Virus record (IMG/VR): IMGVR_UViG_2695420699_000009
Coordinates: 1 to 8,931 of that record
From: a virus
Lineage: Duplodnaviria; Heunggongvirae; Uroviricota; Caudoviricetes
Reading direction: 5' to 3' (one strand)
Length of the DNA: 8,931 nt
The position numbers and the translations under genes were made by a program. Shown here piece after piece: positions 1 to 8,931 of this stretch. The notes beneath the pieces are model-generated. The model was given only the letters and a program-made list of their open reading frames with translations. It was not told where the DNA came from and did no database searches. The stretch's first letter is position 1; each line of letters starts with the position of its first letter.

Positions 1-127
1 AGAAGCCACTGGAGCACCTCAAAAACACCATCATACACTAAATCAGTAAGTTGGCAGCATCACCGATAGCCTCAAGCACCCGCAGCAATTCTACTTAACT
101 CTCGCTTTACCGCAAACCGTTTTTACC

Positions 128-149
128 CGATATGGGAATTCCCATATCG
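128..149. repeat. Perfect 22-bp palindrome CGATATGGGAATTCCCATATCG (11-bp arms, centred on GAATTC)
   Basis: Read directly: the reverse complement of the first 11 nt equals the last 11 nt. Sits 8 nt downstream of the 158..262 small ORF stop. No U-tract follows on either strand, so it is not a canonical intrinsic terminator. Confidence 0.6.
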
Positions 150-157
150 TAATGAAT

Positions 158-262
158 TCAGTTCCCTAGTCGATCCATCAAAAACACAACCAGGCAGTAA
201 ACGCCCACAACAGCAACAACAGCCAGCGCACCTTCCATTGCCAGTGATATATCATCCGACAT
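158..262 (-). CDS. Candidate small hydrophobic peptide, 34 aa (MSDDISLAMEGALAVVAVVGVYCLVVFLMDRLGN)
   Basis: Below the ORF-track length cutoff; found by hand. ATG at 262 preceded by AAGGAGG with ~4-nt spacing; TGA stop at 158-160; one transmembrane-like hydrophobic stretch. No homology evidence. Confidence 0.3.
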   Translation of the reverse strand: MSDDISLAMEGALAVVAVVGVYCLVVFLMDRLGN

Positions 263-297
263 ATTCCCTCCTTTGGTGTTAATCCCGGCGAACGTTT

Positions 298-381
298 TTA
301 CCCCCACCGACAAATAACATATACTAAAAAAGCGATAGCCATAGCAACGCCTGTAATTGCAAATGCTTCAGGCCAGTTCAT
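298..381 (-). CDS. Candidate small hydrophobic peptide, 27 aa (MNWPEAFAITGVAMAIAFLVYVICRWG)
   Basis: ATG at 381..379 overlaps the TGA stop (380..378) of the upstream 300-aa gene in an ATGA arrangement, suggesting translational coupling; the upstream codons GGAGGTG act as SD; TAA stop at 298-300. Hydrophobic core. Confidence 0.3.
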   Translation of the reverse strand: MNWPEAFAITGVAMAIAFLVYVICRWG

Positions 382-1280
382 TGGCGCACCTCCTGCGGCG
401 GTTCTGGTAGAGGCATCCAGTGTGATGGTATCCACGACGCACCAGGTATTATCCACCCATCATTAGCGTCAGGATGCCCCGGGATGTAAGTCGCCCATTT
501 CATTCGCCAGTCACCTTTCCTGCCAAAATCCCTGGCAACAAGAACGGCTGTTTTGGTATCCGGCATTCGCTCACTACAGCTTATCCAACTATCCGGAGTT
601 ACCGGATAGTTGCCCGATAGTGCATTCTGCTCCAGTGATGCTTTTACAAACCACGCTGCCTGAACTATAACGCCATGAATCCAGCGCAAATCAGCATCGC
701 GATCTTTCTTTTTCATCTTTTCGCCACTTAAGGCCTTGCTTATGTGGCTGCGTACCAGGTCTTCATGTAATTCCTTCGCCTCCTCAATGGTGAAACCACC
801 AGGCAGAAGAGCCGGAGTTACCGGAGAGCTGGTTGACGCTTCCGGGATTTCCCGAAAATTATTGGTTGACGAATTCTTGCTTTCCCGAAAGTTTCCGGAC
901 TGAAGCATGGCGGTGCGGCAGGCGTTCCATATTTCGGCAGCAATATCGCGCTCGCTATCGGTTAATTTGTACGTGGAAACATAGCCAGAGAGCATTTCTA
1001 CGTTTTCCGGAGTTGCTTCTTCCGGCACTACCGGCGCTGGCGGGGCGATGCGTCCAAGCAACTTATTTACCTCTTTCGCCATCGCGTCATATTTATCTAA
1101 ATGGCGATTAGCTTCTAAGCAGACTCGGCGCATCTGATCTGAGTTAACTCGTTTAACTGGATCTGCTTCCAGCGATGCCAGCGCAATCCGTGCCAGTTCC
1201 ATTTGTTCACCACGGGTAAGCCCGTTTTCAAGCGGATTTTTAATGAACAATTCAATACGTTCTTTGGTAATAGTGGTCAT
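378..1280 (-). CDS. Phage protein, 300 aa, with a Trp/Pro-rich C-terminal region resembling the DUF551 family
   Basis: Long ORF; ATG at 1280 preceded by AAGGAG at 6-nt spacing. C-terminus (WISCSERMPD...WIIPGASWIPSHWMPLPEPP) recalled as DUF551-like; not searched. Confidence 0.7.
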   Translation of the reverse strand: MTTITKERIELFIKNPLENGLTRGEQMELARIALASLEADPVKRVNSDQMRRVCLEANRHLDKYDAMAKEVNKLLGRIAPPAPVVPEEATPENVEMLSGYVSTYKLTDSERDIAAEIWNACRTAMLQSGNFRESKNSSTNNFREIPEASTSSPVTPALLPGGFTIEEAKELHEDLVRSHISKALSGEKMKKKDRDADLRWIHGVIVQAAWFVKASLEQNALSGNYPVTPDSWISCSERMPDTKTAVLVARDFGRKGDWRMKWATYIPGHPDANDGWIIPGASWIPSHWMPLPEPPQEVRQ

Positions 1281-1290
1281 GTGTTACTCC

Positions 1291-1554
1291 TTAACCCGCA
1301 GTGCTTTCAACTGATGAGGGGAACAAAATCTTTTCATCAAACCCTGCATTCATATCATGAACAGCAACACACCAATCCATCGACGAACGATTATCAAGAG
1401 CCTCCATGATTTCATCCATGCGGCGTAGGTCATACAGGTAAATGCTTTTATCGCCAATGGTGTAAAAGCCAATTTTTTTCGGTGATGGACAGCGATCAAG
1501 AACTTCCTGTAATTCGTTCAACCATGCCCGTTCTTTTTTTGTCAAAGTTGCCAT
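1291..1554 (-). CDS. Hypothetical phage protein, 87 aa (MATLTKKERAWLNELQEVL...)
   Basis: ATG at 1554 preceded by AAGGAAA; the ORF-track N-terminal extension to 1644 lacks an SD. TAA stop at 1291-1293, 10 nt before the next gene start. Confidence 0.6.
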   Translation of the reverse strand: MATLTKKERAWLNELQEVLDRCPSPKKIGFYTIGDKSIYLYDLRRMDEIMEALDNRSSMDWCVAVHDMNAGFDEKILFPSSVESTAG

Positions 1555-1555
1555 A

Positions 1556-1693
1556 TCAGTTTTCCTTATACGGATTAATTTTATTGTGCAGTGTGTTGAA
1601 TGACGCCCATACCACGTCGTTATACAATTCAATAACTGGCTCAATTATTTTTCCGATTATCCAGACTAGGATTAACGGGGATATCGGTATCAT
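1556..1693 (-). CDS. Possible small membrane protein, 45 aa (MIPISPLILVWIIGKIIEPVIELYNDVVWASFNTLHNKINPYKEN)
   Basis: Hand-found ORF in the 250-bp gap between two genes. Strongly hydrophobic N-terminus; TGA stop lies immediately upstream of the 1554 ATG and its last codons form that gene's SD. No SD of its own (in-frame GTG/TTG alternatives just upstream). Weak call. Confidence 0.2.
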   Translation of the reverse strand: MIPISPLILVWIIGKIIEPVIELYNDVVWASFNTLHNKINPYKEN

Positions 1694-1779
1694 CAACACG
1701 ATAAACAGAATGAGAAACAGAAATTCTGTTGTTCTACTCTTTCGCGGATATTTTTTCTAAATAATGTGACCATTCATTA

Positions 1780-1795
1780 CCGCCCTTTCGGGCGG
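1780..1795 (-). terminator. GC-rich hairpin CCGCCC-TTTC-GGGCGG downstream of the 70-aa gene
   Basis: Perfect 6-bp GC stem with a 4-nt loop, about 10 nt after the TAA stop at 1806-1808. No U-run follows on the minus-strand RNA, so at most a weak terminator or stabilising hairpin. Confidence 0.3.
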
Positions 1796-1805
1796 CCTCC
1801 TGACA

Positions 1806-2018
1806 TTAATCGTTGTAATAACTCATAGCTTCATTTGCAGCATCAACTGGATCAACCTCCCTCCAGCAATAATTTGAATCGGCTCCTTCAGGCGTCCACG
1901 GTTCTAATTCATTTTTTGCCGCATTCTCATCGCCAGTAATTTTAAAAATCTGCTCAGAGAATTTTCTTGCCCACTCGTTATATTTTTCCGCATTAATGGC
2001 TTTCTGTGTATTTAACAT
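1806..2018 (-). CDS. Hypothetical small acidic phage protein, 70 aa
   Basis: ATG at 2018 preceded by GGAGGT at ~7-nt spacing; sits in the co-directional operon. Confidence 0.6.
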   Translation of the reverse strand: MLNTQKAINAEKYNEWARKFSEQIFKITGDENAAKNELEPWTPEGADSNYCWREVDPVDAANEAMSYYND

Positions 2019-2068
2019 AAATATACCTCCAGTTAAGGATTAGATTTTATTTACAGCTCTAAATTTAT

Positions 2069-2425
2069 TTATTCAGTTCTGGATTTTGTCGCCCTGCGTA
2101 TCCGCGCTTTCGCGTTACGCTCAATCTGAATTAACTTTTCTATATTTTTCCGCCTTTCCTGTTCCTCCTGGCGCAATAGCCTTACATCATCTGCCAGTCT
2201 GGTTTCTCTTTTCGCCACAGAGAGCATCCAGTCAAACGGCTCCACAACTGCACCGCAGATTTTACAGCGGACCTGACGCTCTTTTTCGTCAACCCGAACA
2301 GAGGCGTGATGGCAATATGGTCTTTCCGATGGCTCATAAAGAAAATTAACCTGATTACGAGGGTCATCCTCTTTTACCGGAAATAAAACGATATTGCTTA
2401 ACTCATCCTCTGGTTTTATTTCCAT
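2069..2425 (-). CDS. Phage protein with a putative zinc-finger (CHH...CKIC) and a basic coiled C-terminal tail, 118 aa
   Basis: ATG at 2425 preceded by AAAGGAGAGGAGC. An alternative GTG start at 2482 (GTGA overlap with the upstream stop, also with an AGGAG) would add 19 aa. Confidence 0.6.
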   Translation of the reverse strand: MEIKPEDELSNIVLFPVKEDDPRNQVNFLYEPSERPYCHHASVRVDEKERQVRCKICGAVVEPFDWMLSVAKRETRLADDVRLLRQEEQERRKNIEKLIQIERNAKARIRRATKSRTE

Positions 2426-2482
2426 GCTCCTCTCCTTTGATGCGAATGCCAGCGGTAATTGAAGCCTGATAGCTAATTTCAC

Positions 2483-2878
2483 TCACAGTACCGTCTCCTG
2501 AAAATTACCCTGATAGAAAGCCAGTACACGCTGCATAGCTTCACTCTTCCGGCACTCGCCACAGATTATGTTCTGTTGTCTGTCGTAGCGGCGTATTTCT
2601 CCGTCTGGTAACTTTCGAATCAATGTCTGGTCGGTTGCTTTCTCCGCTGCCTTACGCCATACGCGATACACCTGTTCTGATGTAAAAACACCGTATTTAC
2701 CGGGCATGTATAAATCGCCACAAGCCAGTACATCCACAAGGCAACGTCTGACTGAATGCCAGCCTGCTCCCGTCGCTCTCTCCAGTTGTGATATCGTCAT
2801 GCGTTCATTTTTGCGTACCAGCCCGATAATTCGGGCCTTCAGTTCTTCACGCTGTTCGTGTGTAAAAGGTTTCGCCAT
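2483..2878 (-). CDS. Hypothetical phage protein, 131 aa, possible winged-helix N-terminus
   Basis: ATG at 2878 preceded by GGAGG at 6-nt spacing; TGA stop at 2483-2485; tight spacing with neighbours. Confidence 0.7.
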   Translation of the reverse strand: MAKPFTHEQREELKARIIGLVRKNERMTISQLERATGAGWHSVRRCLVDVLACGDLYMPGKYGVFTSEQVYRVWRKAAEKATDQTLIRKLPDGEIRRYDRQQNIICGECRKSEAMQRVLAFYQGNFQETVL

Positions 2879-2893
2879 AAGCGCCTCCGGCTA

Positions 2894-3664
2894 TCACTTT
2901 TCCGATACAACACGGCGGGAAGAATCAGTAATCTGTCGAACAATATCCCGGTGCTTGTTCAGCTCCCGCAGCGCGGCGCAGACTCGCTCCCACTTCTGAA
3001 CATCACTTTTCGCCCTGCGCAGCGCCAGGTTTGCCCTGCGCAGGGACGGAAAAATCAGCTCATCTGCTTGCGTTTCGGTAAACGATGGCAACGGCTGCAC
3101 AATGTCCGCCACAGTTTCTGTTTTAATTTCTTCCTGTGTTGCGGCTTCCCGGACTGGTAACGAAGCACCTGCTGGCTGAGGAAAGGCCTTACCATCACTT
3201 TCCGTTACCAGCGCGGCTTTCGGCTCTGCTGGTAAATTATCGCCCGGCATGCAGTAACGAAATTTACCGTTCTGATTAACGCGTGCCAGCCGCCCCGTTG
3301 CGGTTACCACCGCCAGCGTGGAAGCAACCTTGCGAGTACTGACACCGAACTTACCCGCCAGTTCCTCACACGTTTTAGCCCCATCCTGACCGATAAACTC
3401 AATCATCATGTCTGCGGTAACTTTTTGTTCGACCTCCCCGGTCAGCATATCCTGTGCTTCAGATTTTACTGGCCGCTCTTCGGTTACCCGGGATTCACCT
3501 TCGCCAGCCAGAAACCAGGTGTGACCAGTTTTATCAACGACGCCATTTCTTTTGAGTTCCCACAGCTCGTTGACAGCCTCTTCACGACTGATTCCAAGGC
3601 GAGCTGCCACCACATGTGAAGAGGCTTTTTTCAGTGCTTTCAGTGCGTCAGATACGGTTTCCAT
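2894..3664 (-). CDS. Phage protein, 256 aa, with two tandem winged-helix-like repeats (DUF1627-like by recollection)
   Basis: ATG at 3664 preceded by GGAGG at 8-nt spacing. Two similar segments (VAARLGISREEAVNELWELKRNG and ELAGKFGVSTRKVASTLAVVTATG). Lies directly downstream of the helicase-loader gene, as is usual in lambdoid prophages. Confidence 0.7.
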   Translation of the reverse strand: METVSDALKALKKASSHVVAARLGISREEAVNELWELKRNGVVDKTGHTWFLAGEGESRVTEERPVKSEAQDMLTGEVEQKVTADMMIEFIGQDGAKTCEELAGKFGVSTRKVASTLAVVTATGRLARVNQNGKFRYCMPGDNLPAEPKAALVTESDGKAFPQPAGASLPVREAATQEEIKTETVADIVQPLPSFTETQADELIFPSLRRANLALRRAKSDVQKWERVCAALRELNKHRDIVRQITDSSRRVVSEK

Positions 3665-3685
3665 TAAAATTTCCTCCGGACAAAA

Positions 3686-4432
3686 TTACTTCACAACCCT
3701 CATATTGCTGACATTTGGACGCCAGCTATCCCAGTTAAACGTCACCCATCGACCACCGTTCATGGTCATGCGATCCATAATCCGCTCGCCGAGCAATGTT
3801 TTCATGGCCTCATAGTTCAGGTTTGTCAGCATCCCCACGCTGCGCATCGACGCTGTCCGGCGATCAACAATCTGGTGCAGTACCACCTGCTCGTTTTTCG
3901 TCTCGCGCTGAATGCCAATTTCATCAAGAACCAGCAGATCCACTTCGCACAGTTCCCGCAAAAATTTTTCGCCTGACTGCCCATCGTCATAGCTGGCGTG
4001 CAGGGCACTCATAACATCAGCCACGGTAACCACAATCACTGTCTGACCGTCTTTCAGCAGGCGATTCCCGATAGCTGCCGCTAAGTGGTTCTTCCCGGTA
4101 CCAGGTTTTCCGCTGAACGCAAAATTTGTACACCCGGTCATCAGTTCATCAGCGATGGATTTCGCCTGACTCAACGCGTATCGCTGCCCTTCGTTCTGCA
4201 CCTGGTAATTCGAAAACGAGCATTTGCTGTGCAGAGGCTGGATGCCCGAACGATTCAGGATTTTTTCCACCCGCAACTGGTGATTCTGGCGGTTAATCTC
4301 CTCGCTGCGTTTTCGTCCTTCAGCAAGTTGCCATTCCCGCCACTCCTCCACCGTCCGGTACGGTGGAACCGACGCCTGTGGTGCAAGTCTGCGAATACGT
4401 TCAAGAACCCCGGCTGCCGCAATGTTTTTCAT
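3686..4432 (-). CDS. DnaC/IstB-family AAA+ helicase loader (lambda P functional analogue; Rac YdaV-like), 248 aa
   Basis: Walker A (GKPGTGKNHLAAAIG) and Walker B (DLLVLDEIG) read in the translation. ATG at 4432 lies 6 nt after the upstream gene stop, with a GGGGGTGA SD. Confidence 0.9.
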   Translation of the reverse strand: MKNIAAAGVLERIRRLAPQASVPPYRTVEEWREWQLAEGRKRSEEINRQNHQLRVEKILNRSGIQPLHSKCSFSNYQVQNEGQRYALSQAKSIADELMTGCTNFAFSGKPGTGKNHLAAAIGNRLLKDGQTVIVVTVADVMSALHASYDDGQSGEKFLRELCEVDLLVLDEIGIQRETKNEQVVLHQIVDRRTASMRSVGMLTNLNYEAMKTLLGERIMDRMTMNGGRWVTFNWDSWRPNVSNMRVVK

Positions 4433-4438
4433 GCCACA

Positions 4439-5521
4439 TCACCCCCTGAATCCCGGCGGTATTTCAGTGTCCGGTTCAGAAATGTGATTCACGCAACGCT
4501 GGTTGTTCGTGCCGCTTACCGGGAGCAACCAGGGGTTTTCAAAATTCCGGTCCGGCCCAAAAAACGTCTTCGCTCGCTGAACAAATTCCGTTCCCGCTTT
4601 CCCGGTCGCCGCCAGGTATCTCGCGTAACGCCTCACACCATCCAGCATGGTCTCTGGTGGCACCCCCTCGCGCAATCTGGCCTTCCAGGCACTGAATGCG
4701 GATTTCTTCGGGTTTGCTCCGGCACGCAACGGGAACTCCCGCCAGACCTGTTCGAACACATCCGGATAATCCACTCGTCCCACAGACTGCCCGGTGTTTT
4801 CCGGGACTACCCGATCGGCTTCCCGCTGAATGGCGGAATCGGCTTCGGGCTGCTGCAGTTGGTGTGATTGCTCCGGCCTTGCGGTCATCACCTGCTGCAC
4901 AGCGCCCGAATCGGCTTTCAGCGCATACGCTGAATCGGCTTCCGGTGTCGTGCCTGCTGGCTGACCAGGATTGACGGTCTGAACATCCCCTGCCTGGTTC
5001 GTGGCGTTTTTTACGCCATGGACCATAGTGTTTTGATCTTCTTGATCTGTATCTTTATCTGTATCTTTATCTGTATCTTTATCTGTCGTGACTCGTCGTG
5101 ACATGTGCGTGACATTTCGTGACGCGCCGTGACAATCGCCATTTTGTTCCCGCTTTCTTTCCCTCTCTCGCTGCGCCCTCTTGCGCTCTGCAGGAGATTT
5201 TGCGGTTTGCGAAATATTGCCGTTGTCCTCTTTAAGCACCTGGCGTTTTTCCCATCCAGTGATTAAATCACCATCAAGTACCCGCCCCTGCATCGTCTGC
5301 AAAATTGAATCAATTACCTCTTCTGTCACGTCGAGCGCACTTGCCAAATCTTCTGTCGTGACATCAATGTGACCTCGCGTGACATTTCGTGACGCGCTCA
5401 CCAGGAGGTGGATATACACTGCCATCACTGTTGCAATTGGCTGCCCTGACACCCTGGCAATTGTTCGCCACTTAGGGTCATTTGGCATGTCATGCCATAA
5501 TCTGAGCCAGGCGTTAGCCAT
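4439..5521 (-). CDS. Replication initiator / replisome organiser (lambda O-like; Rac YdaU-like), ~360 aa
   Basis: Sits immediately upstream of the DnaC-like gene. Start taken as the ATG at 5521 (SD GAGGTGA); the ORF track begins at a GTG at 5527. The coding sequence contains the iteron-like repeats and a (TDKD)n linker. Confidence 0.8.
   Translation of the reverse strand: MANAWLRLWHDMPNDPKWRTIARVSGQPIATVMAVYIHLLVSASRNVTRGHIDVTTEDLASALDVTEEVIDSILQTMQGRVLDGDLITGWEKRQVLKEDNGNISQTAKSPAERKRAQRERERKREQNGDCHGASRNVTHMSRRVTTDKDTDKDTDKDTDQEDQNTMVHGVKNATNQAGDVQTVNPGQPAGTTPEADSAYALKADSGAVQQVMTARPEQSHQLQQPEADSAIQREADRVVPENTGQSVGRVDYPDVFEQVWREFPLRAGANPKKSAFSAWKARLREGVPPETMLDGVRRYARYLAATGKAGTEFVQRAKTFFGPDRNFENPWLLPVSGTNNQRCVNHISEPDTEIPPGFRG
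5045..5080. repeat. Tandem 12-bp repeat (ATCTGTATCTTT x3, plus a partial copy) encoding a TDKDTDKDTDKD linker
   Basis: Read directly at 5045-5086; corresponds to ...TTDKDTDKDTDKDTDQ... in the minus-strand translation. Confidence 0.9.
5086..5397. other. Putative phage origin of replication: two clusters of phased GTGAC iteron-like repeats inside the initiator gene
   Basis: Cluster 1 (5086-5133) has five GTGAC copies at ~10-13 bp spacing; cluster 2 (5356-5393) has four. An exact 20-bp repeat CGTGACATTTCGTGACGCGC occurs at 5108-5127 and 5378-5397. Lambda ori lies inside O in the same way. Confidence 0.55.
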
Positions 5522-5592
5522 ACTCACCTCTTCTGATACCGAATCTTTTTACTCACGAGTTGCCGGAAGCGATTCGATATGGCTATTATCAC

Positions 5593-6018
5593 TCAATGCA
5601 CTGCCACAGCATTTCCTGCCGGGCCACCACGGTTCATCTGATTGAAACCGGCGATTGCCACCGCGACAAAATCATCAGCGTCTCTCACCAGTCGCTCCCG
5701 CGTCTCCACCAGCTCCCGAAAATAAGCTGAACTGTGGCTGCGCATTCTGGCCACCAGCAAAGGTGGCATTGCCTTTTCGATCGCTGGTAACAACGCCAGA
5801 ATTTTTTCAACTGCATCAGGGGTGTCTTTCTCTATCCAGCGGAAAATTTTCTGGGTATTGCGAGCCAGGGCTTCCGGATGGCTGTCGTCGTACAGTTCAG
5901 GAAACGTCATACCCAACTCAAAATAAGCCTGGGTTATTCCAGCTGCCGGAACTTTTTCGCCATCAGGACGCGCCCAGGCATTCATCGCCATGCGGATGTG
6001 TTCATGCTTGATTTTCAT
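5593..6018 (-). CDS. CII-like regulator (Rac YdaT-like), 141 aa
   Basis: Immediately follows the Cro-like gene on the same strand; ATG at 6018 preceded by AGGAGC at 7-nt spacing and overlapping the upstream gene's 3' end by 17 nt. Family assignment by position and recollection. Confidence 0.7.
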   Translation of the reverse strand: MKIKHEHIRMAMNAWARPDGEKVPAAGITQAYFELGMTFPELYDDSHPEALARNTQKIFRWIEKDTPDAVEKILALLPAIEKAMPPLLVARMRSHSSAYFRELVETRERLVRDADDFVAVAIAGFNQMNRGGPAGNAVAVH

Positions 6019-6283
6019 GAATCAAGCTCCTAGAAAGTGGTTGTGTTAACGTTTTGGTATCTTCCAGCTCGGGCCAAATATTCATCCAATCAAAAGGCCT
6101 TAGTTGCTGACGTGTAACTTCACCATTACTGGCTCGCTCAATAAGGACACATAACGATGCCCCTAACACTTGACCTTTACTCAATGCCTTTCTTAGATAA
6201 CCGATGCTGGTACCACACTCGCATGCAAACATACGCTGTTCATCTGACGAAAGAGAATTGAGAAATATTCTTAATTCTTCCAT
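6002..6283 (-). CDS. Cro-like HTH regulator (Rac YdaS-like), 93 aa
   Basis: First gene of the minus-strand operon, divergent from the repressor; ATG at 6283 preceded by AAGGAG at 5-nt spacing; HTH-like segment around TSIGYLRKALSKGQ. Confidence 0.75.
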   Translation of the reverse strand: MEELRIFLNSLSSDEQRMFACECGTSIGYLRKALSKGQVLGASLCVLIERASNGEVTRQQLRPFDWMNIWPELEDTKTLTQPLSRSLIHENQA

Positions 6284-6308
6284 AGCTACTCCTTAGTAAA
6301 CACAGCAA

Positions 6309-6390
6309 AGAATACCCATAGGTAAACAAAAGTCAATACCCATAGGTTGTTTACCTTGCGGTAATCGCATCTATTATTTACCTATGGATA
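6309..6390. promoter_or_regulatory. OR-like divergent promoter region with three copies of a 12-bp palindromic operator (consensus TACCyATrGGTA)
   Basis: Operators at 6313-6324 (TACCCATAGGTA), 6337-6348 (TACCCATAGGTT) and 6379-6390 (TACCTATGGATA, overlapping the repressor ATG). Candidate minus-strand promoter: -35 TTGACT (6336..6331), -10 TATTCT (6314..6309). Candidate plus-strand promoter: -10 TATTAT (6372-6377), placing the start at or near the ATG. Confidence 0.6.
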
Positions 6391-6803
6391 AATATGAATT
6401 TAGACGACAGCAACTCATCAAAATTCGTGATGAGAAATGCGATGGTAAAGCGGTTAACGTGGCCAGAAAGATCGGGCGCGAGCCTTCTTATGTATCAAGA
6501 ATGTTGTACCCAGAGGGGAAAAAGGGAAAAAAACGGATCGCTGATGATATGGTGGAGATTATCGAAGAGTCCTTTGGGTTACCCCGGGGATGGATGGATG
6601 GTATCGTTTCATCATCAACGAACACAGCCTCCAGTTATGAAACAAGGGTTCTAACGCCACGACAACGTATTTTTTTAGATCTCTTAGACGAACTGCCAGA
6701 AAGTGAAGCGGATAAATTATTAAAAACTCTTGAAGAGAAAAAACAGTATTACAATATGATCTACGAAGAAATCCGTAAAAAGAAAGCACAAAACGCATCA
6801 TAG
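6384..6803 (+). CDS. CI-type prophage repressor, 139 aa, XRE-like HTH with a DicA/RacR-like C-terminal region
   Basis: Divergent from the Cro-like gene. HTH-like segment AVNVARKIGREPSYVSRML. The C-terminal part (LTPRQRIFLDLLDELPESEADKLL...) resembles the DicA C-terminus as I recall it. No SD upstream, consistent with a leaderless transcript. Confidence 0.8.
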   Translation: MDKYEFRRQQLIKIRDEKCDGKAVNVARKIGREPSYVSRMLYPEGKKGKKRIADDMVEIIEESFGLPRGWMDGIVSSSTNTASSYETRVLTPRQRIFLDLLDELPESEADKLLKTLEEKKQYYNMIYEEIRKKKAQNAS

Positions 6804-6845
6804 CTCACCAAACAACTAGTCACCAGTTAAGACACCGCAAAAAGT

Positions 6846-6886
6846 TACCCATGGGTATTTACTTTTTAAATACCTATGGGTATCCT
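6846..6886. promoter_or_regulatory. OL-like operator pair and candidate rightward early promoter
   Basis: Same motif as in OR: TACCCATGGGTA (6846-6857, perfect palindrome) and TACCTATGGGTA (6871-6882), 25 bp centre to centre. Candidate -35 TTTACT (6858-6863) and -10 TATCCT (6881-6886) with a 17-bp spacer, firing on the plus strand. Confidence 0.5.
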
Positions 6887-7207
6887 TCTTTTCATGCCAA
6901 CCCACCCCGCCCCACAGAATGCAGGGCAATACTTTGAGTTACCAGGCAGTGGTCAGGGGTTAAGTAGCCAGCCCGAGGCGTAAGAACATGACGGCAGGGT
7001 TCAACTTTAATAACTATGCAGCAGGTTTTTGTTCCGCTACCCCGGCGTTAAGGGGAAACAGAGGATTTCTCAGTGGGCGAAGTCAAACATCAGAATGGAA
7101 GGCATCCAGGGATCAGCAAAGAAACAGCGATGGCGCTTTATATTGATATCAGCGCCATTGCCGGACAGGTAAGAATTATCAGAGCGGTAACTAAGCGGTA
7201 TGCGCCT

Positions 7208-7408
7208 TTACTTCAGAAAGTCTCTGGTGAGTGCACCGAAGATATTGTCAACGATTTCGTCATCAAACTGCGAGGACTCATCTTCAGTTACAAGGTGACC
7301 ACAATTTTTGCAGATGGCTCCCGCGAAACTGTCAGAGCCATGCGGTTTAAAGGATGTGTCAAAGACTTCGCCGCCACATTCTGGGCAAGAAAACTTGATT
7401 GTATTCAT
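7208..7408 (-). CDS. Small Cys4 zinc-ribbon protein with an acidic C-terminal tail, 66 aa
   Basis: Two CxxCG knuckles (CPECGG and CKNCGH) 20 residues apart. ATG at 7408 preceded by GAGAGGAAA at ~9-nt spacing; the ORF-track start at 7414 is a TTG. Oriented opposite to the surrounding plus-strand early operon. A plus-strand ORF (7073-7429) fully overlaps it; the zinc-ribbon motif decided the call. Confidence 0.55.
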   Translation of the reverse strand: MNTIKFSCPECGGEVFDTSFKPHGSDSFAGAICKNCGHLVTEDESSQFDDEIVDNIFGALTRDFLK

Positions 7409-7500
7409 AACCAATTTCCTCTCGAGTAACAGCCGCCTCAGAGGATACCACCTCGCCTGACGTGGTTAAAAGCAGGCAACGCTAACCACAAGGAGCCGAC

Positions 7501-7719
7501 ATGCAGAAACGAGAACCCGTCATCATCGCGCCAGACTATACCGATGATGAACTTTATGAGTGGATGCACCAGAAAATTAAGGCAGCGCAGGACCTGAAAT
7601 GGGCCAATGAAGCCAGGGCTAAGCAAGCTGAAAATCTGTCCGCTCTGGAGCAGGATATCACCAATCTGGAAAAAGCAGCGGCATTAAGCATTGCCAGAAT
7701 GATTACATACCCGCGTTAA
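7501..7719 (+). CDS. Hypothetical early-operon protein, 72 aa (same position and size as Qin YdfC, but not verified)
   Basis: ATG at 7501 preceded by AAGGAGCC at 5-6 nt spacing; TAA stop at 7717-7719; same strand as the dicF-dicB module. Confidence 0.6.
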   Translation: MQKREPVIIAPDYTDDELYEWMHQKIKAAQDLKWANEARAKQAENLSALEQDITNLEKAAALSIARMITYPR

Positions 7720-8059
7720 TAGCTAACCAACGAAGCTAAGGTTGGTAATTAAGGAGTTCTCCACGGGTGAGGTGGAGTGCGTGCGCCGGACACGGGTGAG
7801 CATCCGGCACTGACAGTTTACTGAAAGGATATTTCCCTGAAAAGTCAGGGCATAACGCGAAAGCGCACGGCGAGGTAGCTGGTTCATAGATAGCCTGTCG
7901 TTAAATTTTCGTCGACCGTGCGCTTCCGGTTGTGGCACTCCGCGAAATGGCGCGGCGGTAAGTATGGCGGGGTTATTCCTTCCCCGTTGAGGACACCGGG
8001 TTGTCAGGTTGACCATACGCTTAAGTGACAACCCCGCTGCAACGCCCTCTGTTATCAAT

Positions 8060-8117
8060 TTTCTGGTGACGTTTGGCGGTATCAGTTTTACTCCGTGGCT
8101 GCTCTGCCGCCCTTTTT
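8060..8117 (+). ncRNA. dicF: DicF-like small RNA (ftsZ-targeting sRNA of Qin-type prophages)
   Basis: TTTCTGGTGACGTTTGGCGGTATCAGTTTTACTCCGTGGCTGCTCTGCCGCCCTTTTT matches my recollection of E. coli DicF almost base for base. It ends in a GC-rich stem plus T-run and lies ~170 nt upstream of the dicB-like gene, as in the Qin dicB operon. Ends are approximate, since DicF is made by processing. Confidence 0.7.
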
Positions 8118-8286
8118 AAAGTGAATTTTGTGATGCGGTGAATGCGGCTAAGCGCACGCGGAACAGTTAAAACCAAAAACAGTGTTATGGGTGGATTCTC
8201 TGTATCCGGCGTTAATTGTTAACTGGTTAACGTCACCTGGAGGCACCAGGCACTGCATCACAAAATTCATTGTTGAGGACGCGATA

Positions 8287-8475
8287 ATGGAAAAGTTATC
8301 ACGTAATGCCAGCACGTCTGAACTTCGTTTCGAAATTGGCGTTATCACTGGAGACAAAACATTTATTGAAGACGCCATTAAGCAGAGAAAACTCGAGCAG
8401 GACCTGTTAAATGAAGTATGCATTCCTTCAATGCTGGCTCGTCTGGACCTGCTGCAAAAAGGATATAAACAATGA
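8287..8475 (+). CDS. dicB: DicB-like cell-division inhibitor, 62 aa
   Basis: Same length as E. coli DicB and shares recalled motifs (FEIGV, EDAI, KRK, LLN, SMLARL, C-terminal KG..Q). ATG at 8287 preceded by GAGGA at ~8-nt spacing; the ORF-track extension to 8182 has no support. Confidence 0.8.
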   Translation: MEKLSRNASTSELRFEIGVITGDKTFIEDAIKQRKLEQDLLNEVCIPSMLARLDLLQKGYKQ

Positions 8476-8663
8476 ATACAACATTTGCACTCGTTCTGAC
8501 AGTTTATCTTGTTTCCGGCGAATCTCTTGAGCTGGTGACTGGCTTATACGGTTCAATGAAAGAATGCATGGCTGCAGCAGCAGAACAAAAAATTCCCGGT
8601 AACTGTTATCCGGTAGATAAAACTACCCACACTAATAATAACGAAATACCGGCAGGACTTTAA
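8472..8663 (+). CDS. Small protein with a hydrophobic N-terminus, 63 aa, translationally coupled to dicB (YdfD-like by position and size)
   Basis: ATG at 8472-8474 overlaps the dicB-like TGA stop in an ATGA arrangement. N-terminal hydrophobic segment MNTTFALVLTVYLVSG. Matches the position and length of Qin YdfD; sequence identity not verified. Confidence 0.55.
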   Translation: MNTTFALVLTVYLVSGESLELVTGLYGSMKECMAAAAEQKIPGNCYPVDKTTHTNNNEIPAGL

Positions 8664-8756
8664 AACAGCACCGTAATTAATATCCGGTTTCATTTTTATA
8701 TGCCAGCAATGGCAGGGATTTGTTCACCCTTAAATCTGTAATGAGGTTAAAACAAA

Positions 8757-8931
8757 ATGAGTAAAGTCTTTATTTGCGCCGCCATTCCGGACGAACAGGC
8801 AATAAAAGAAGAGGGCGCAGTTGCTGTAGCCACTGCCATTGAAGCTGGCGACGAACGCCGTGCTCGAGCAAAATTTCACTGGCAATTCCTGGAACATTAT
8901 CCGGCTGCTCAGGACTGCGCTTATAAATTTA
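8757..8931 (+). CDS. Hypothetical protein, 5' part only (runs off the window; YdfE-like by position)
   Basis: ATG at 8757 with GAGG ~10 nt upstream; open to the end of the window (MSKVFICAAIPDEQAIKEEGAVAVATAIEAGDERRARAKFHWQFLEHYPAAQDCAYKF...). Confidence 0.55.
   Translation, partial: MSKVFICAAIPDEQAIKEEGAVAVATAIEAGDERRARAKFHWQFLEHYPAAQDCAYKF

Follow-up and report, generated by a model that had tools for sequence, protein, structure and literature searches.

Introduction

In phage lambda, the replication origin occupies the central part of gene O, which encodes the linker joining the DNA-binding and the loader-binding domains of the initiator (PMC7466680). This origin consists of four 18-bp palindromic iterons that are spaced 20-24 bp apart, are bound by O dimers and are followed by ACAAAAGACACTATTACAAAAGAAAAAAGAAAAGATTATT on the sense strand. 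In Bacillus phage SPP1, the initiator G38P binds the repeats of oriL, an AT-rich region serves as the unwinding element, and replication has been reconstituted in vitro (PMC6316719). The repeats of SPP1 gene 38 (GAAACGACAG, GAAACGACAC, GAAAAAGACAC and GAAAAAGACAC) follow each other at about 11 bp and precede an A-rich tract on the sense strand. Here we describe a locus of this kind in an 8,931-bp stretch of DNA (hereafter the window; positions 1 to 8,931 of the IMG/VR virus record IMGVR_UViG_2695420699_000009), which is the early-right region of an Escherichia coli lambdoid prophage. Sequence comparisons make it likely that the segment from about 5035 to 5393 is the replication origin of this prophage, and this segment is embedded in the coding sequence of the prophage's own initiator (4439-5521, minus strand).

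The candidate origin contains two arrays of a 6-bp core (GTCACG on the sense strand) that is directly repeated every 10-11 bp; in the order in which the gene is read, we call them array A and array B. A tract rich in A/T and purines adjoins array B. Array B and the tract have the same order, polarity and strand asymmetry as lambda ori and SPP1 oriL. As in lambda and in the Shiga toxin (Stx) phages 933W and P27, iterons in the middle of the initiator gene precede an AT-rich tract whose sense strand is rich in purines, the gene order (cI, cro, cII, initiator, loader) is the same, and the N-domain of the initiator goes with the iterons and its C-domain with the partner protein, the two halves being exchanged between phages. 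The likeness to SPP1 oriL lies in an origin placed in the initiator's own gene, with linker-coding direct repeats after an N-terminal DNA-binding domain. Because their cores are short, directly repeated and helically phased, the arrays of the window stand closer to SPP1 than to lambda with its O-dimer-bound palindromes. The differences are equally clear: lambda has one iteron cluster and the initiator family of the window has two, the loader is DnaC-like instead of P, and a DnaC-like AAA+ loader and host DnaB take the place of the SPP1 proteins G39P and G40P. The core sequence differs from that of SPP1 (GAAACGACAC-like), SPP1 possesses a second origin (oriR) of which we saw no counterpart in this window, and G38P has no significant similarity to the window initiator (BLASTP E 0.4). 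Neither in lambda ori nor in SPP1 gene 38 did we see anything comparable to array A, which is phased and falls in the part of the gene that encodes a folded domain.

Replication-essential direct repeats are also present within the replisome-organizer open reading frame (ORF) of the lactococcal/lactobacillus phages TP901-1, Tuc2009 and A2, whose hosts and protein families differ from those considered here; we know of no two-array layout in these phages. Plasmid iterons measure 17-22 bp and are situated outside rep itself, usually in the company of DnaA boxes; Rep_3-type initiators possess a winged-helix domain, and extra iteron clusters serve control. In iteron plasmids such as pSC101, R6K, P1 and F, direct initiator-binding repeats are found beside an AT-rich unwinding element (cf. 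the review PMC4980987). In contrast to these plasmids, the cores in the window are 6 bp long and lie inside the gene, there is no DnaA box near them, and the initiator has no homology to the Rep_3 family. That an origin can reside inside an initiator gene is a general principle long known, and the locus described here follows a known design (an SPP1-/lambda-type origin in the initiator gene) in an initiator family whose origin we have not found described. Its distinctive traits are the additional array in the coding sequence of the folded domain and the conservation of the tract in every iteron class.

Results

Two helically phased arrays and an A/T- and purine-rich tract in the initiator gene

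On the plus strand, the pentamer GTGAC forms one cluster of five copies (5088, 5098, 5109, 5119 and 5129; spacing 10, 11, 10 and 10 bp) and a second of four (5358, 5369, 5379 and 5389; spacing 11, 10 and 10 bp), in full agreement with a preliminary description of this DNA that had reported nine such pentamers in two clusters with roughly helical phasing. Read along the gene (minus strand), the first-named cluster is array B (5087-5133), whose five GTCACG cores have start-to-start distances of 10/10/11/10 bp and belong to the linker-coding part of the gene (..CHGASRNVTHMSRRVTT). Array A (5357-5393, minus strand) contains four GTCAC cores at distances of 10/10/11 bp and encodes ASRNVTRGHIDVT; three of its cores are full GTCACG hexamers, and the copy at 5369 has the GTGAC core only. 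A further core is present in inverted orientation at 5325-5330 (GTCACG on the plus strand and hence CGTGAC on the sense strand), about 30 bp past array A as the gene is read. Both arrays lie inside the initiator ORF (4439-5527, minus strand), a placement that the preliminary description had likened to that of lambdoid phages, and the segments that it took to be tolerated in frame (NVTHMSRRVTT and TRGHIDVTT) are present in the protein.

The two arrays share an exact duplicate, GCGTGACATTTCGTGACGCGC, composed of two adjacent cores and an AAAT spacer. Its copies at 5377-5397 (array A) and 5107-5127 (array B) lie 270 bp apart, the distance already given in the preliminary description, which had put the length of the repeat at 20 bp; the duplicate measures 21 bp. 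By an arithmetic estimate, the chance expectation for an exact repeat of 21 bp in 8.9 kb is about 1e-5.

The hexamer CGTGAC occurs nine times in the 8931-bp window, eight times on the plus strand and once inverted, and all of these copies fall within 5087-5393. A count of nine is only a mild excess over the shuffled expectation of 3.3; what sets CGTGAC apart is not its count but its confinement to 307 bp and its helical phasing. Clustering of any hexamer, compared with shuffled sequences, proved uninformative because low-complexity words in the shuffles inflate the null, and we relied on the confinement of CGTGAC and on comparative tests instead. The 8.9-kb window contains no other repeat array. 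A DnaA box (TTATNCACA, up to one mismatch) was not found between 2868 and 6382, and a DnaA-assisted origin therefore receives no support from a box near the arrays.

Array B is adjoined by the A/T- and purine-rich tract (5040-5086, minus strand), which is built from 3.9 copies of the 12-bp tandem unit TCTTTATCTGTA ((GATAAAGATACA)n on the sense strand) and begins 3 nt past the last array-B core. With a GC content of 27.5%, it is the minimum of the gene, and it contains the gene's least stable 45-mer, which ranks 44 of 8886 window-wide. Two GATC (Dam) sites (5035-5038 and 5044-5047) mark the far edge of the tract. The interval of 5086-5397 that had been singled out in the preliminary description covers both arrays; it leaves out the abutting tract, and the inverted copy had not been mentioned. 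The copy number of the 12-bp unit GATAAAGATACA varies among close relatives (L009 and L010), so that the tract behaves like a variable number tandem repeat: before the sequence DQEDQ, the window protein has three full DKDT units and that of Shigella flexneri (L009) has two. Matches to E. coli genomes often break at query position 33 or 45, which is consistent with differences in tract length. A reading of the tract as a set of DnaA-trios was rejected, as only the first triplet (TAG) fits 3'-GAT-5'; we keep it as a loose functional analogy.

Arrays and tract are conserved across the initiator family

We collected homologues of the initiator N-domain by a tblastn search against phage genomes and by one scan of contigs representing one genome per species. 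They are present in phages of Aeromonas, Pseudomonas and Ralstonia and of a freshwater spring metagenome, and in 59 bacterial species (including members of Serratia, Rahnella, Bordetella, Aquitalea, Acidovorax, Chromobacterium, Sphingomonas, Burkholderia and Cupriavidus), so that the relatives of the initiator span Gamma-, Beta- and Alphaproteobacteria. A scan of viral contigs for initiator homologues yielded 80 near-identical E. coli copies and no added diversity. When the first 800 nt of each gene were searched for any 5-mer recurring at 9-12 bp, two arrays appeared at the same relative positions in almost every locus (nt about 129-160 and about 380-430). Array B is at the same place in 51 of 61 homologous loci, most of which also possess array A. 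The preliminary description had named the absence of the repeats from homologues as an observation that would speak against an origin; the opposite was found, the arrays being kept in Aeromonas, Pseudomonas, Serratia, Bordetella, Ralstonia and others.

The sequence of the core differs among lineages. GTCACG is used in E. coli, Aeromonas, Pseudomonas and others, GAACGC in many Beta- and Alphaproteobacteria, GCAACG in Ralstonia phage Hennie, Cupriavidus and Burkholderia, GTGACG in some Pseudomonas, and GTAACG in Pantoea, Enterobacter, Marinobacter and Sphingomonas. Arrays A and B of one locus use the same core, with L057 as a mixed case. The GTCACG class alone comprises 104 array-A and 95 array-B units, spaced by 10 bp in 103 instances and by 11 bp in 31. 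With the array-A-coded columns masked, the nearest neighbor by N-domain shares the iteron class in 42 of 56 cases, a value reached in 0 of 2000 permutations. The iteron class thus co-varies with the N-domain of the initiator.

The tract is likewise a shared feature, AT- and purine-rich in nearly all loci, and the architecture of arrays plus tract is conserved across the family. Over the 50 nt that follow the last array-B core in 51 loci, the A+T content is 63% vs. 43% for the gene, and 69% of the bases on the sense strand are purines vs. 56% for the gene (Wilcoxon p = 6e-10 for either comparison). The join is fixed in the GTCACG class (GTCAC[G/A]N[C/T]AGATAAAGATAAAG), with the tract 3 nt from the last core, and a hexamer period of AGA(T/G)A(A/C) is present whatever the iteron class. 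This period is translated in different frames (GAT AAA yields DKDK, GAT ACA yields DTDT, and cAG ATA AGA GAA yields QIREEE), which indicates that its conservation is at least partly exerted at the level of the DNA.

GATC sites within 100 nt after array B were present in eight of nine loci from orders that we take to carry Dam, compared with 8 of 40 loci from other hosts (Fisher p = 2e-4). Their density after array B in the loci of the Dam-carrying orders is 15.6 per kb, compared with 2.1 per kb over the remainder of the gene, and clusters occur in phages of Enterobacterales and Aeromonas (L003, L012, L014, L019, L022, L026 and L033). This clustering hints at an involvement of Dam and SeqA, as at oriC.

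The repeats are under selection at the DNA level

The sense strand of array B reads CAC GGC GCG TCA CGA AAT GTC ACG CAC ATG TCA CGA CGA GTC ACG. Here, as in array A, GTCAC is decoded in all three frames (as H, S-R and V-T), and a motif that is read in three frames is a DNA element and not a peptide repeat. For a codon-based test, we used 21 indel-free homologues from different genera (mean pairwise amino acid identity 0.75 over codons 1-85) and scored, for each codon, how often sequences with the same amino acid share the same codon. This codon identity was 0.95 for codons with their third base inside an array-A core (n = 8) and 0.42 for the other degenerate codons (n = 64; Mann-Whitney p = 7e-6). 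Invariant codons within the cores are V47 (GTC, 21/21), T48 (ACG, 21/21), G50 (GGT, 21/21), H51 (CAC, 20/20) and V54 (GTC, 21/21), and the codons flanking the cores (N46 as AAT in 17/18; D53 as GAT in 14/14) reveal a preference for T before the core. The inverted copy is marked by V65, which is GTG in 18/18 homologues; the exact CGTGAC is found at gene nt 192 in 14 of the GTCACG-class loci listed, and the corresponding sequence of Ralstonia phage Hennie, CGTTGC, stands at about this position. Collectively, the frozen synonymous sites and the change of the motif together with the N-domain bear out the view of the preliminary description that the repeats act at the DNA level: they are under DNA-level selection.

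An AlphaFold2 (AF2) model of initiator residues 1-147 (36-sequence alignment; mean predicted local distance difference test score [pLDDT] 75) shows a confident helical domain over residues 1-95 (pLDDT 87-96), with a winged-helix-like topology (helices 4-16, 18-27, 31-47, 58-65 and 69-79, followed by a hairpin). Within this folded N-domain, array A supplies the codons for the last part of helix 31-47 and for the loop and strand 48-57, and the linker segment encoded by array B and the tract has a pLDDT of <50. The sequence of the array-A loop goes with the core: ASRNVTRGH with GTCACG, ASNATERG with GAACGC and ASTATQGNADATRGN with GCAACG. In some lineages the loop grows by whole iteron units, up to 6-8 array-A cores, and is correspondingly longer; since its length varies among homologues, the loop can be regarded as a permissive region.

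The initiator and its genomic setting

The mechanical initiator ORF (4439-5527, 362 amino acids) begins at GTG 5527; translation probably starts at ATG 5521, which is preceded by GAGGTG. The product matches phrog_3729 ("replication initiation protein") with an E of 1e-253, and its close relatives are named "phage replisome organizer" by NCBI. No match above threshold was obtained against Pfam, NCBIfam or PDB sequences, and none to the Rep_3 family. Phage_rep_org_N (PF09681) aligns over its full length below threshold (16.1 bits, cut-off 23.3, E 0.012), as does TIGR01714 score below its cut-off (15.4 bits vs. 49.8), and Phage_rep_O, the lambda O family, gave no match even at E up to 10. The label "O-like protein" used in the preliminary description does not hold: the initiator is a replisome-organizer-like protein with a DnaT-like tail and not a homologue of lambda O. 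This tail, the last ~24 residues (window 4439-4510; ...ISEPDTEIPPGFRG), shows a weak likeness to the C-terminal end of DnaT, a primosomal protein of the host (NF002770, E 0.0016, far below cut-off; PDB 6aep/2ru8, E about 0.02), and several homologues carry the single-stranded DNA (ssDNA)-binding domain of DnaT (PF17948). In the predicted organization, a winged-helix-like domain at the N-terminus is followed by a disordered linker and then by a C-terminal domain that ends in the DnaT-like tail, by which the initiator may engage DnaB and the DnaC-like loader.

This loader is encoded directly downstream of the initiator gene (3686-4432, minus strand; IstB_IS21, E 6e-19; Bac_DnaA ATPase, E 1e-8; phrog_50, "DnaC-like helicase loader", E 4e-83) and is the presumed partner of the initiator C-terminal domain. 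The other genes of the region encode a cI-like repressor (6384-6803, plus strand) and, on the minus strand, a Cro/YdaS-like protein (6002-6283), a cII/YdaT-like protein (5593-6018), DUF1627 (2894-3664), a DUF977/Ren-like protein (2483-2878) and DUF551 (378-1280). In a search of complete E. coli genomes, the segment 5020-5527 was 100% identical to E. coli 2013C-3264. Of 5426 such genomes, 1817 (about one third) carry the initiator module, in up to four copies per genome, and its copies are usually annotated as "hypothetical protein" or "phage replisome organizer".

Many database copies of the initiator (proteins P0002-P0029) are labeled "partial", as assemblies seem to break inside the gene, plausibly due to the tandem tract and to the presence of up to four module copies per genome. 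The C-terminal half of the initiator gene also contains imperfect direct repeats with AATCGGCTTC (4814-4849 and 4910-4945, 75% identical). Those at window 4814-4945 encode repeated PEADSA peptides, and Shigella phage POCJ13 has a similar GAATCGGCTTC family. In phage Tritos (L002, 5988-6040), which has the same initiator gene, the annotation places a DicF antisense small RNA about 2.4 kb away from it.

The C-terminal half and the partner protein are exchanged

N-domain, arrays and tract stay together, while the C-terminal half and the partner encoded downstream change independently. In the window and in Aeromonas phage pAEv1818 this partner is a DnaC-like loader; Pseudomonas phage P7869 has a primase-helicase in its place, and Ralstonia phage Hennie has DnaB. 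Conversely, Shigella phage POCJ13 and the 75/02 Stx phages ("Eru4" type) share the C-terminal domain of the initiator at ~82% DNA identity and have an unrelated N-domain. Their match is confined to window 4439-4917 (479 nt), the 3' end of the gene, with the mosaic break between the C-terminal part and the linker, and CGTGAC is absent from 5.5 kb of POCJ13. Such a division, the N-domain going with the ori and the C-domain with the loader, is classical among lambdoid phages.

The N-domain region of POCJ13 (L001, 3080-3390) has a motif of its own, AAGGGGCTTC, twice at a distance of 12 bp, and its linker region carries the inverted sequences GAAGCCCCTT / GAGCCCCTTT just before a purine-rich tract (CAAGAACAGGAACAGGAACAGGAAAGAGATAAAACC); this set of motifs may be a parallel origin design. 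In a Serratia metagenome-assembled genome (L048) and in Pantoea (L058), the same N-domain as in the window family is fused to a different C-terminal part (gene nt about 320-700) with a GIY-YIG/T5orf172-like motif (..YYVY..GIS.NPWAR..DLK), and CTACGTA-type repeats stand in place of the usual arrays and tract.

Discussion

The proposal of the preliminary description that this region is a candidate origin is supported by our sequence comparisons. In the mechanism that we infer by analogy with lambda O/ori and SPP1 G38P/oriL, the N-terminal winged-helix-like domain of the initiator would bind the GTCACG cores, and the direct repeats at 10-11 bp would align the bound initiators on one face of the helix. 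We propose array B (5087-5133) as the core initiator-binding site: it would nucleate an oligomer beside the tract (5040-5086), which would then melt and is probably the DNA-unwinding element, with helicase loading proposed to occur there as well. The C-terminal domain with its DnaT-like tail would recruit the DnaC-like loader (3686-4432) and host DnaB. Array A, together with the inverted copy (5325-5330), is proposed to be an auxiliary initiator-binding array 230-270 bp upstream, whose sites may serve to lengthen the nucleoprotein complex, to loop it, or to allow the initiator to curb the transcription of its own operon.

A more far-reaching reading of the same data would hold jointly that array A dictates the amino acid sequence of the helix end and loop that it encodes in the folded domain, instead of being shaped by it, and that the AGA(T/G)A(A/C) tract is a specific, class-independent element recognized as ssDNA. 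The tract would then be more than DNA that melts easily: a conserved segment of the initiator, or else the machinery that loads the helicase, may recognize it, and it may be functionally comparable to the DnaA-trios at oriC. We advance this joint reading tentatively and consider it rather doubtful.

Several observations weigh against an origin in this segment or against parts of the mechanism. L035, L037, L045 and L051 are devoid of array A (the first three keep 1-2 weak cores before the tract), and array A is thus dispensable in some lineages. The tract would also fit a low-complexity charged linker, so that some of its conservation could be driven by the protein. In a Foldseek comparison of the AF2 N-domain with the PDB, winged-helix regulators appeared only as non-significant matches (best E 0.17), and the link of the initiator to the validated SPP1 family is below threshold both for the Phage_rep_org_N model (16.1 vs. 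23.3 bits) and for the alignment of the family profile with G38P (hhalign probability 0.13). Because the loci are phylogenetically related and our tests treat them as independent, the p-values given above overstate independence. Finally, our literature search retrieved no paper that describes the origin of this initiator family, and papers on the "Eru" types of Stx-phage replication regions (PMC8044961, PMC8951638) do not mention its iterons or origin.

What else could the arrays be? They might be initiator-binding sites that serve autoregulation only, as a roadblock or operator in the replication operon, with the real origin elsewhere in the prophage. Occupied arrays inside a transcribed gene would indeed block RNA polymerase, array A precedes all other parts of the operon, and its loss from some homologues is what one expects of a regulatory accessory. 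A roadblock, however, needs no AT/purine-rich tract, yet array B is always followed by such a tract, which in the GTCACG class begins at a constant distance of 3 nt and which is a hallmark of lambda ori and SPP1 oriL; the clustering of GATC sites fits an origin, and the 8.9-kb window offers no other repeat array. We therefore regard autoregulation alone as unlikely. Binding of the repeats by a protein other than the initiator, be it a host factor or a phage regulator, might be suspected from the AF2 model, in which the N-domain has a predicted recognition helix of no marked basic character. The hexamer class nevertheless changes with the N-domain, which is the sole constant partner of the arrays across hosts from Escherichia to Ralstonia and Sphingomonas with differing neighbor genes, and a DnaA box is absent nearby; we judge such a binder very unlikely.

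The mosaic break toward the POCJ13 and 75/02 Stx phages, which falls between the C-terminal part and the linker, and the AGATAA tract common to otherwise diverged initiators could also be taken to mean that arrays and tract are mainly a recombination joint for swapping initiator halves at the boundary of the N- and C-domains, with no role in initiation. This would leave unexplained why array A sits in the folded domain, why the repeats are helically phased, why their synonymous sites are frozen and why the iteron class tracks the N-domain; module exchange at this place is more likely a by-product, and a mere joint is highly improbable. That the repeats reflect a repeated peptide, an RNA structure or chance is scarcely credible. 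The sequence ASRNVT does occur twice in the protein, but the motif is read in three frames and the synonymous sites are frozen; the array B region shows no unusual RNA folding (z = -1.16); and chance would have to account for nine copies within 307 of 8931 bp and for arrays conserved in about 50 species.

If the segment is the origin of this prophage, as we consider likely, several uses follow from its features. The presence of two phased hexamer arrays and an AGATAA tract inside a gene provides a rule for annotation, and the defined fragment of ~360 bp lends itself to the construction of prophage-derived replicons and is a target for origin-based interference with prophage induction. The natural series of iteron-class switches (GTCACG, GAACGC, GCAACG, GTGACG and GTAACG) offers material for studying the co-evolution of initiator and site specificity. 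The locus also provides a clean example of a cis element that constrains the synonymous sites, and apparently also the amino acid sequence, of the protein that probably reads it.

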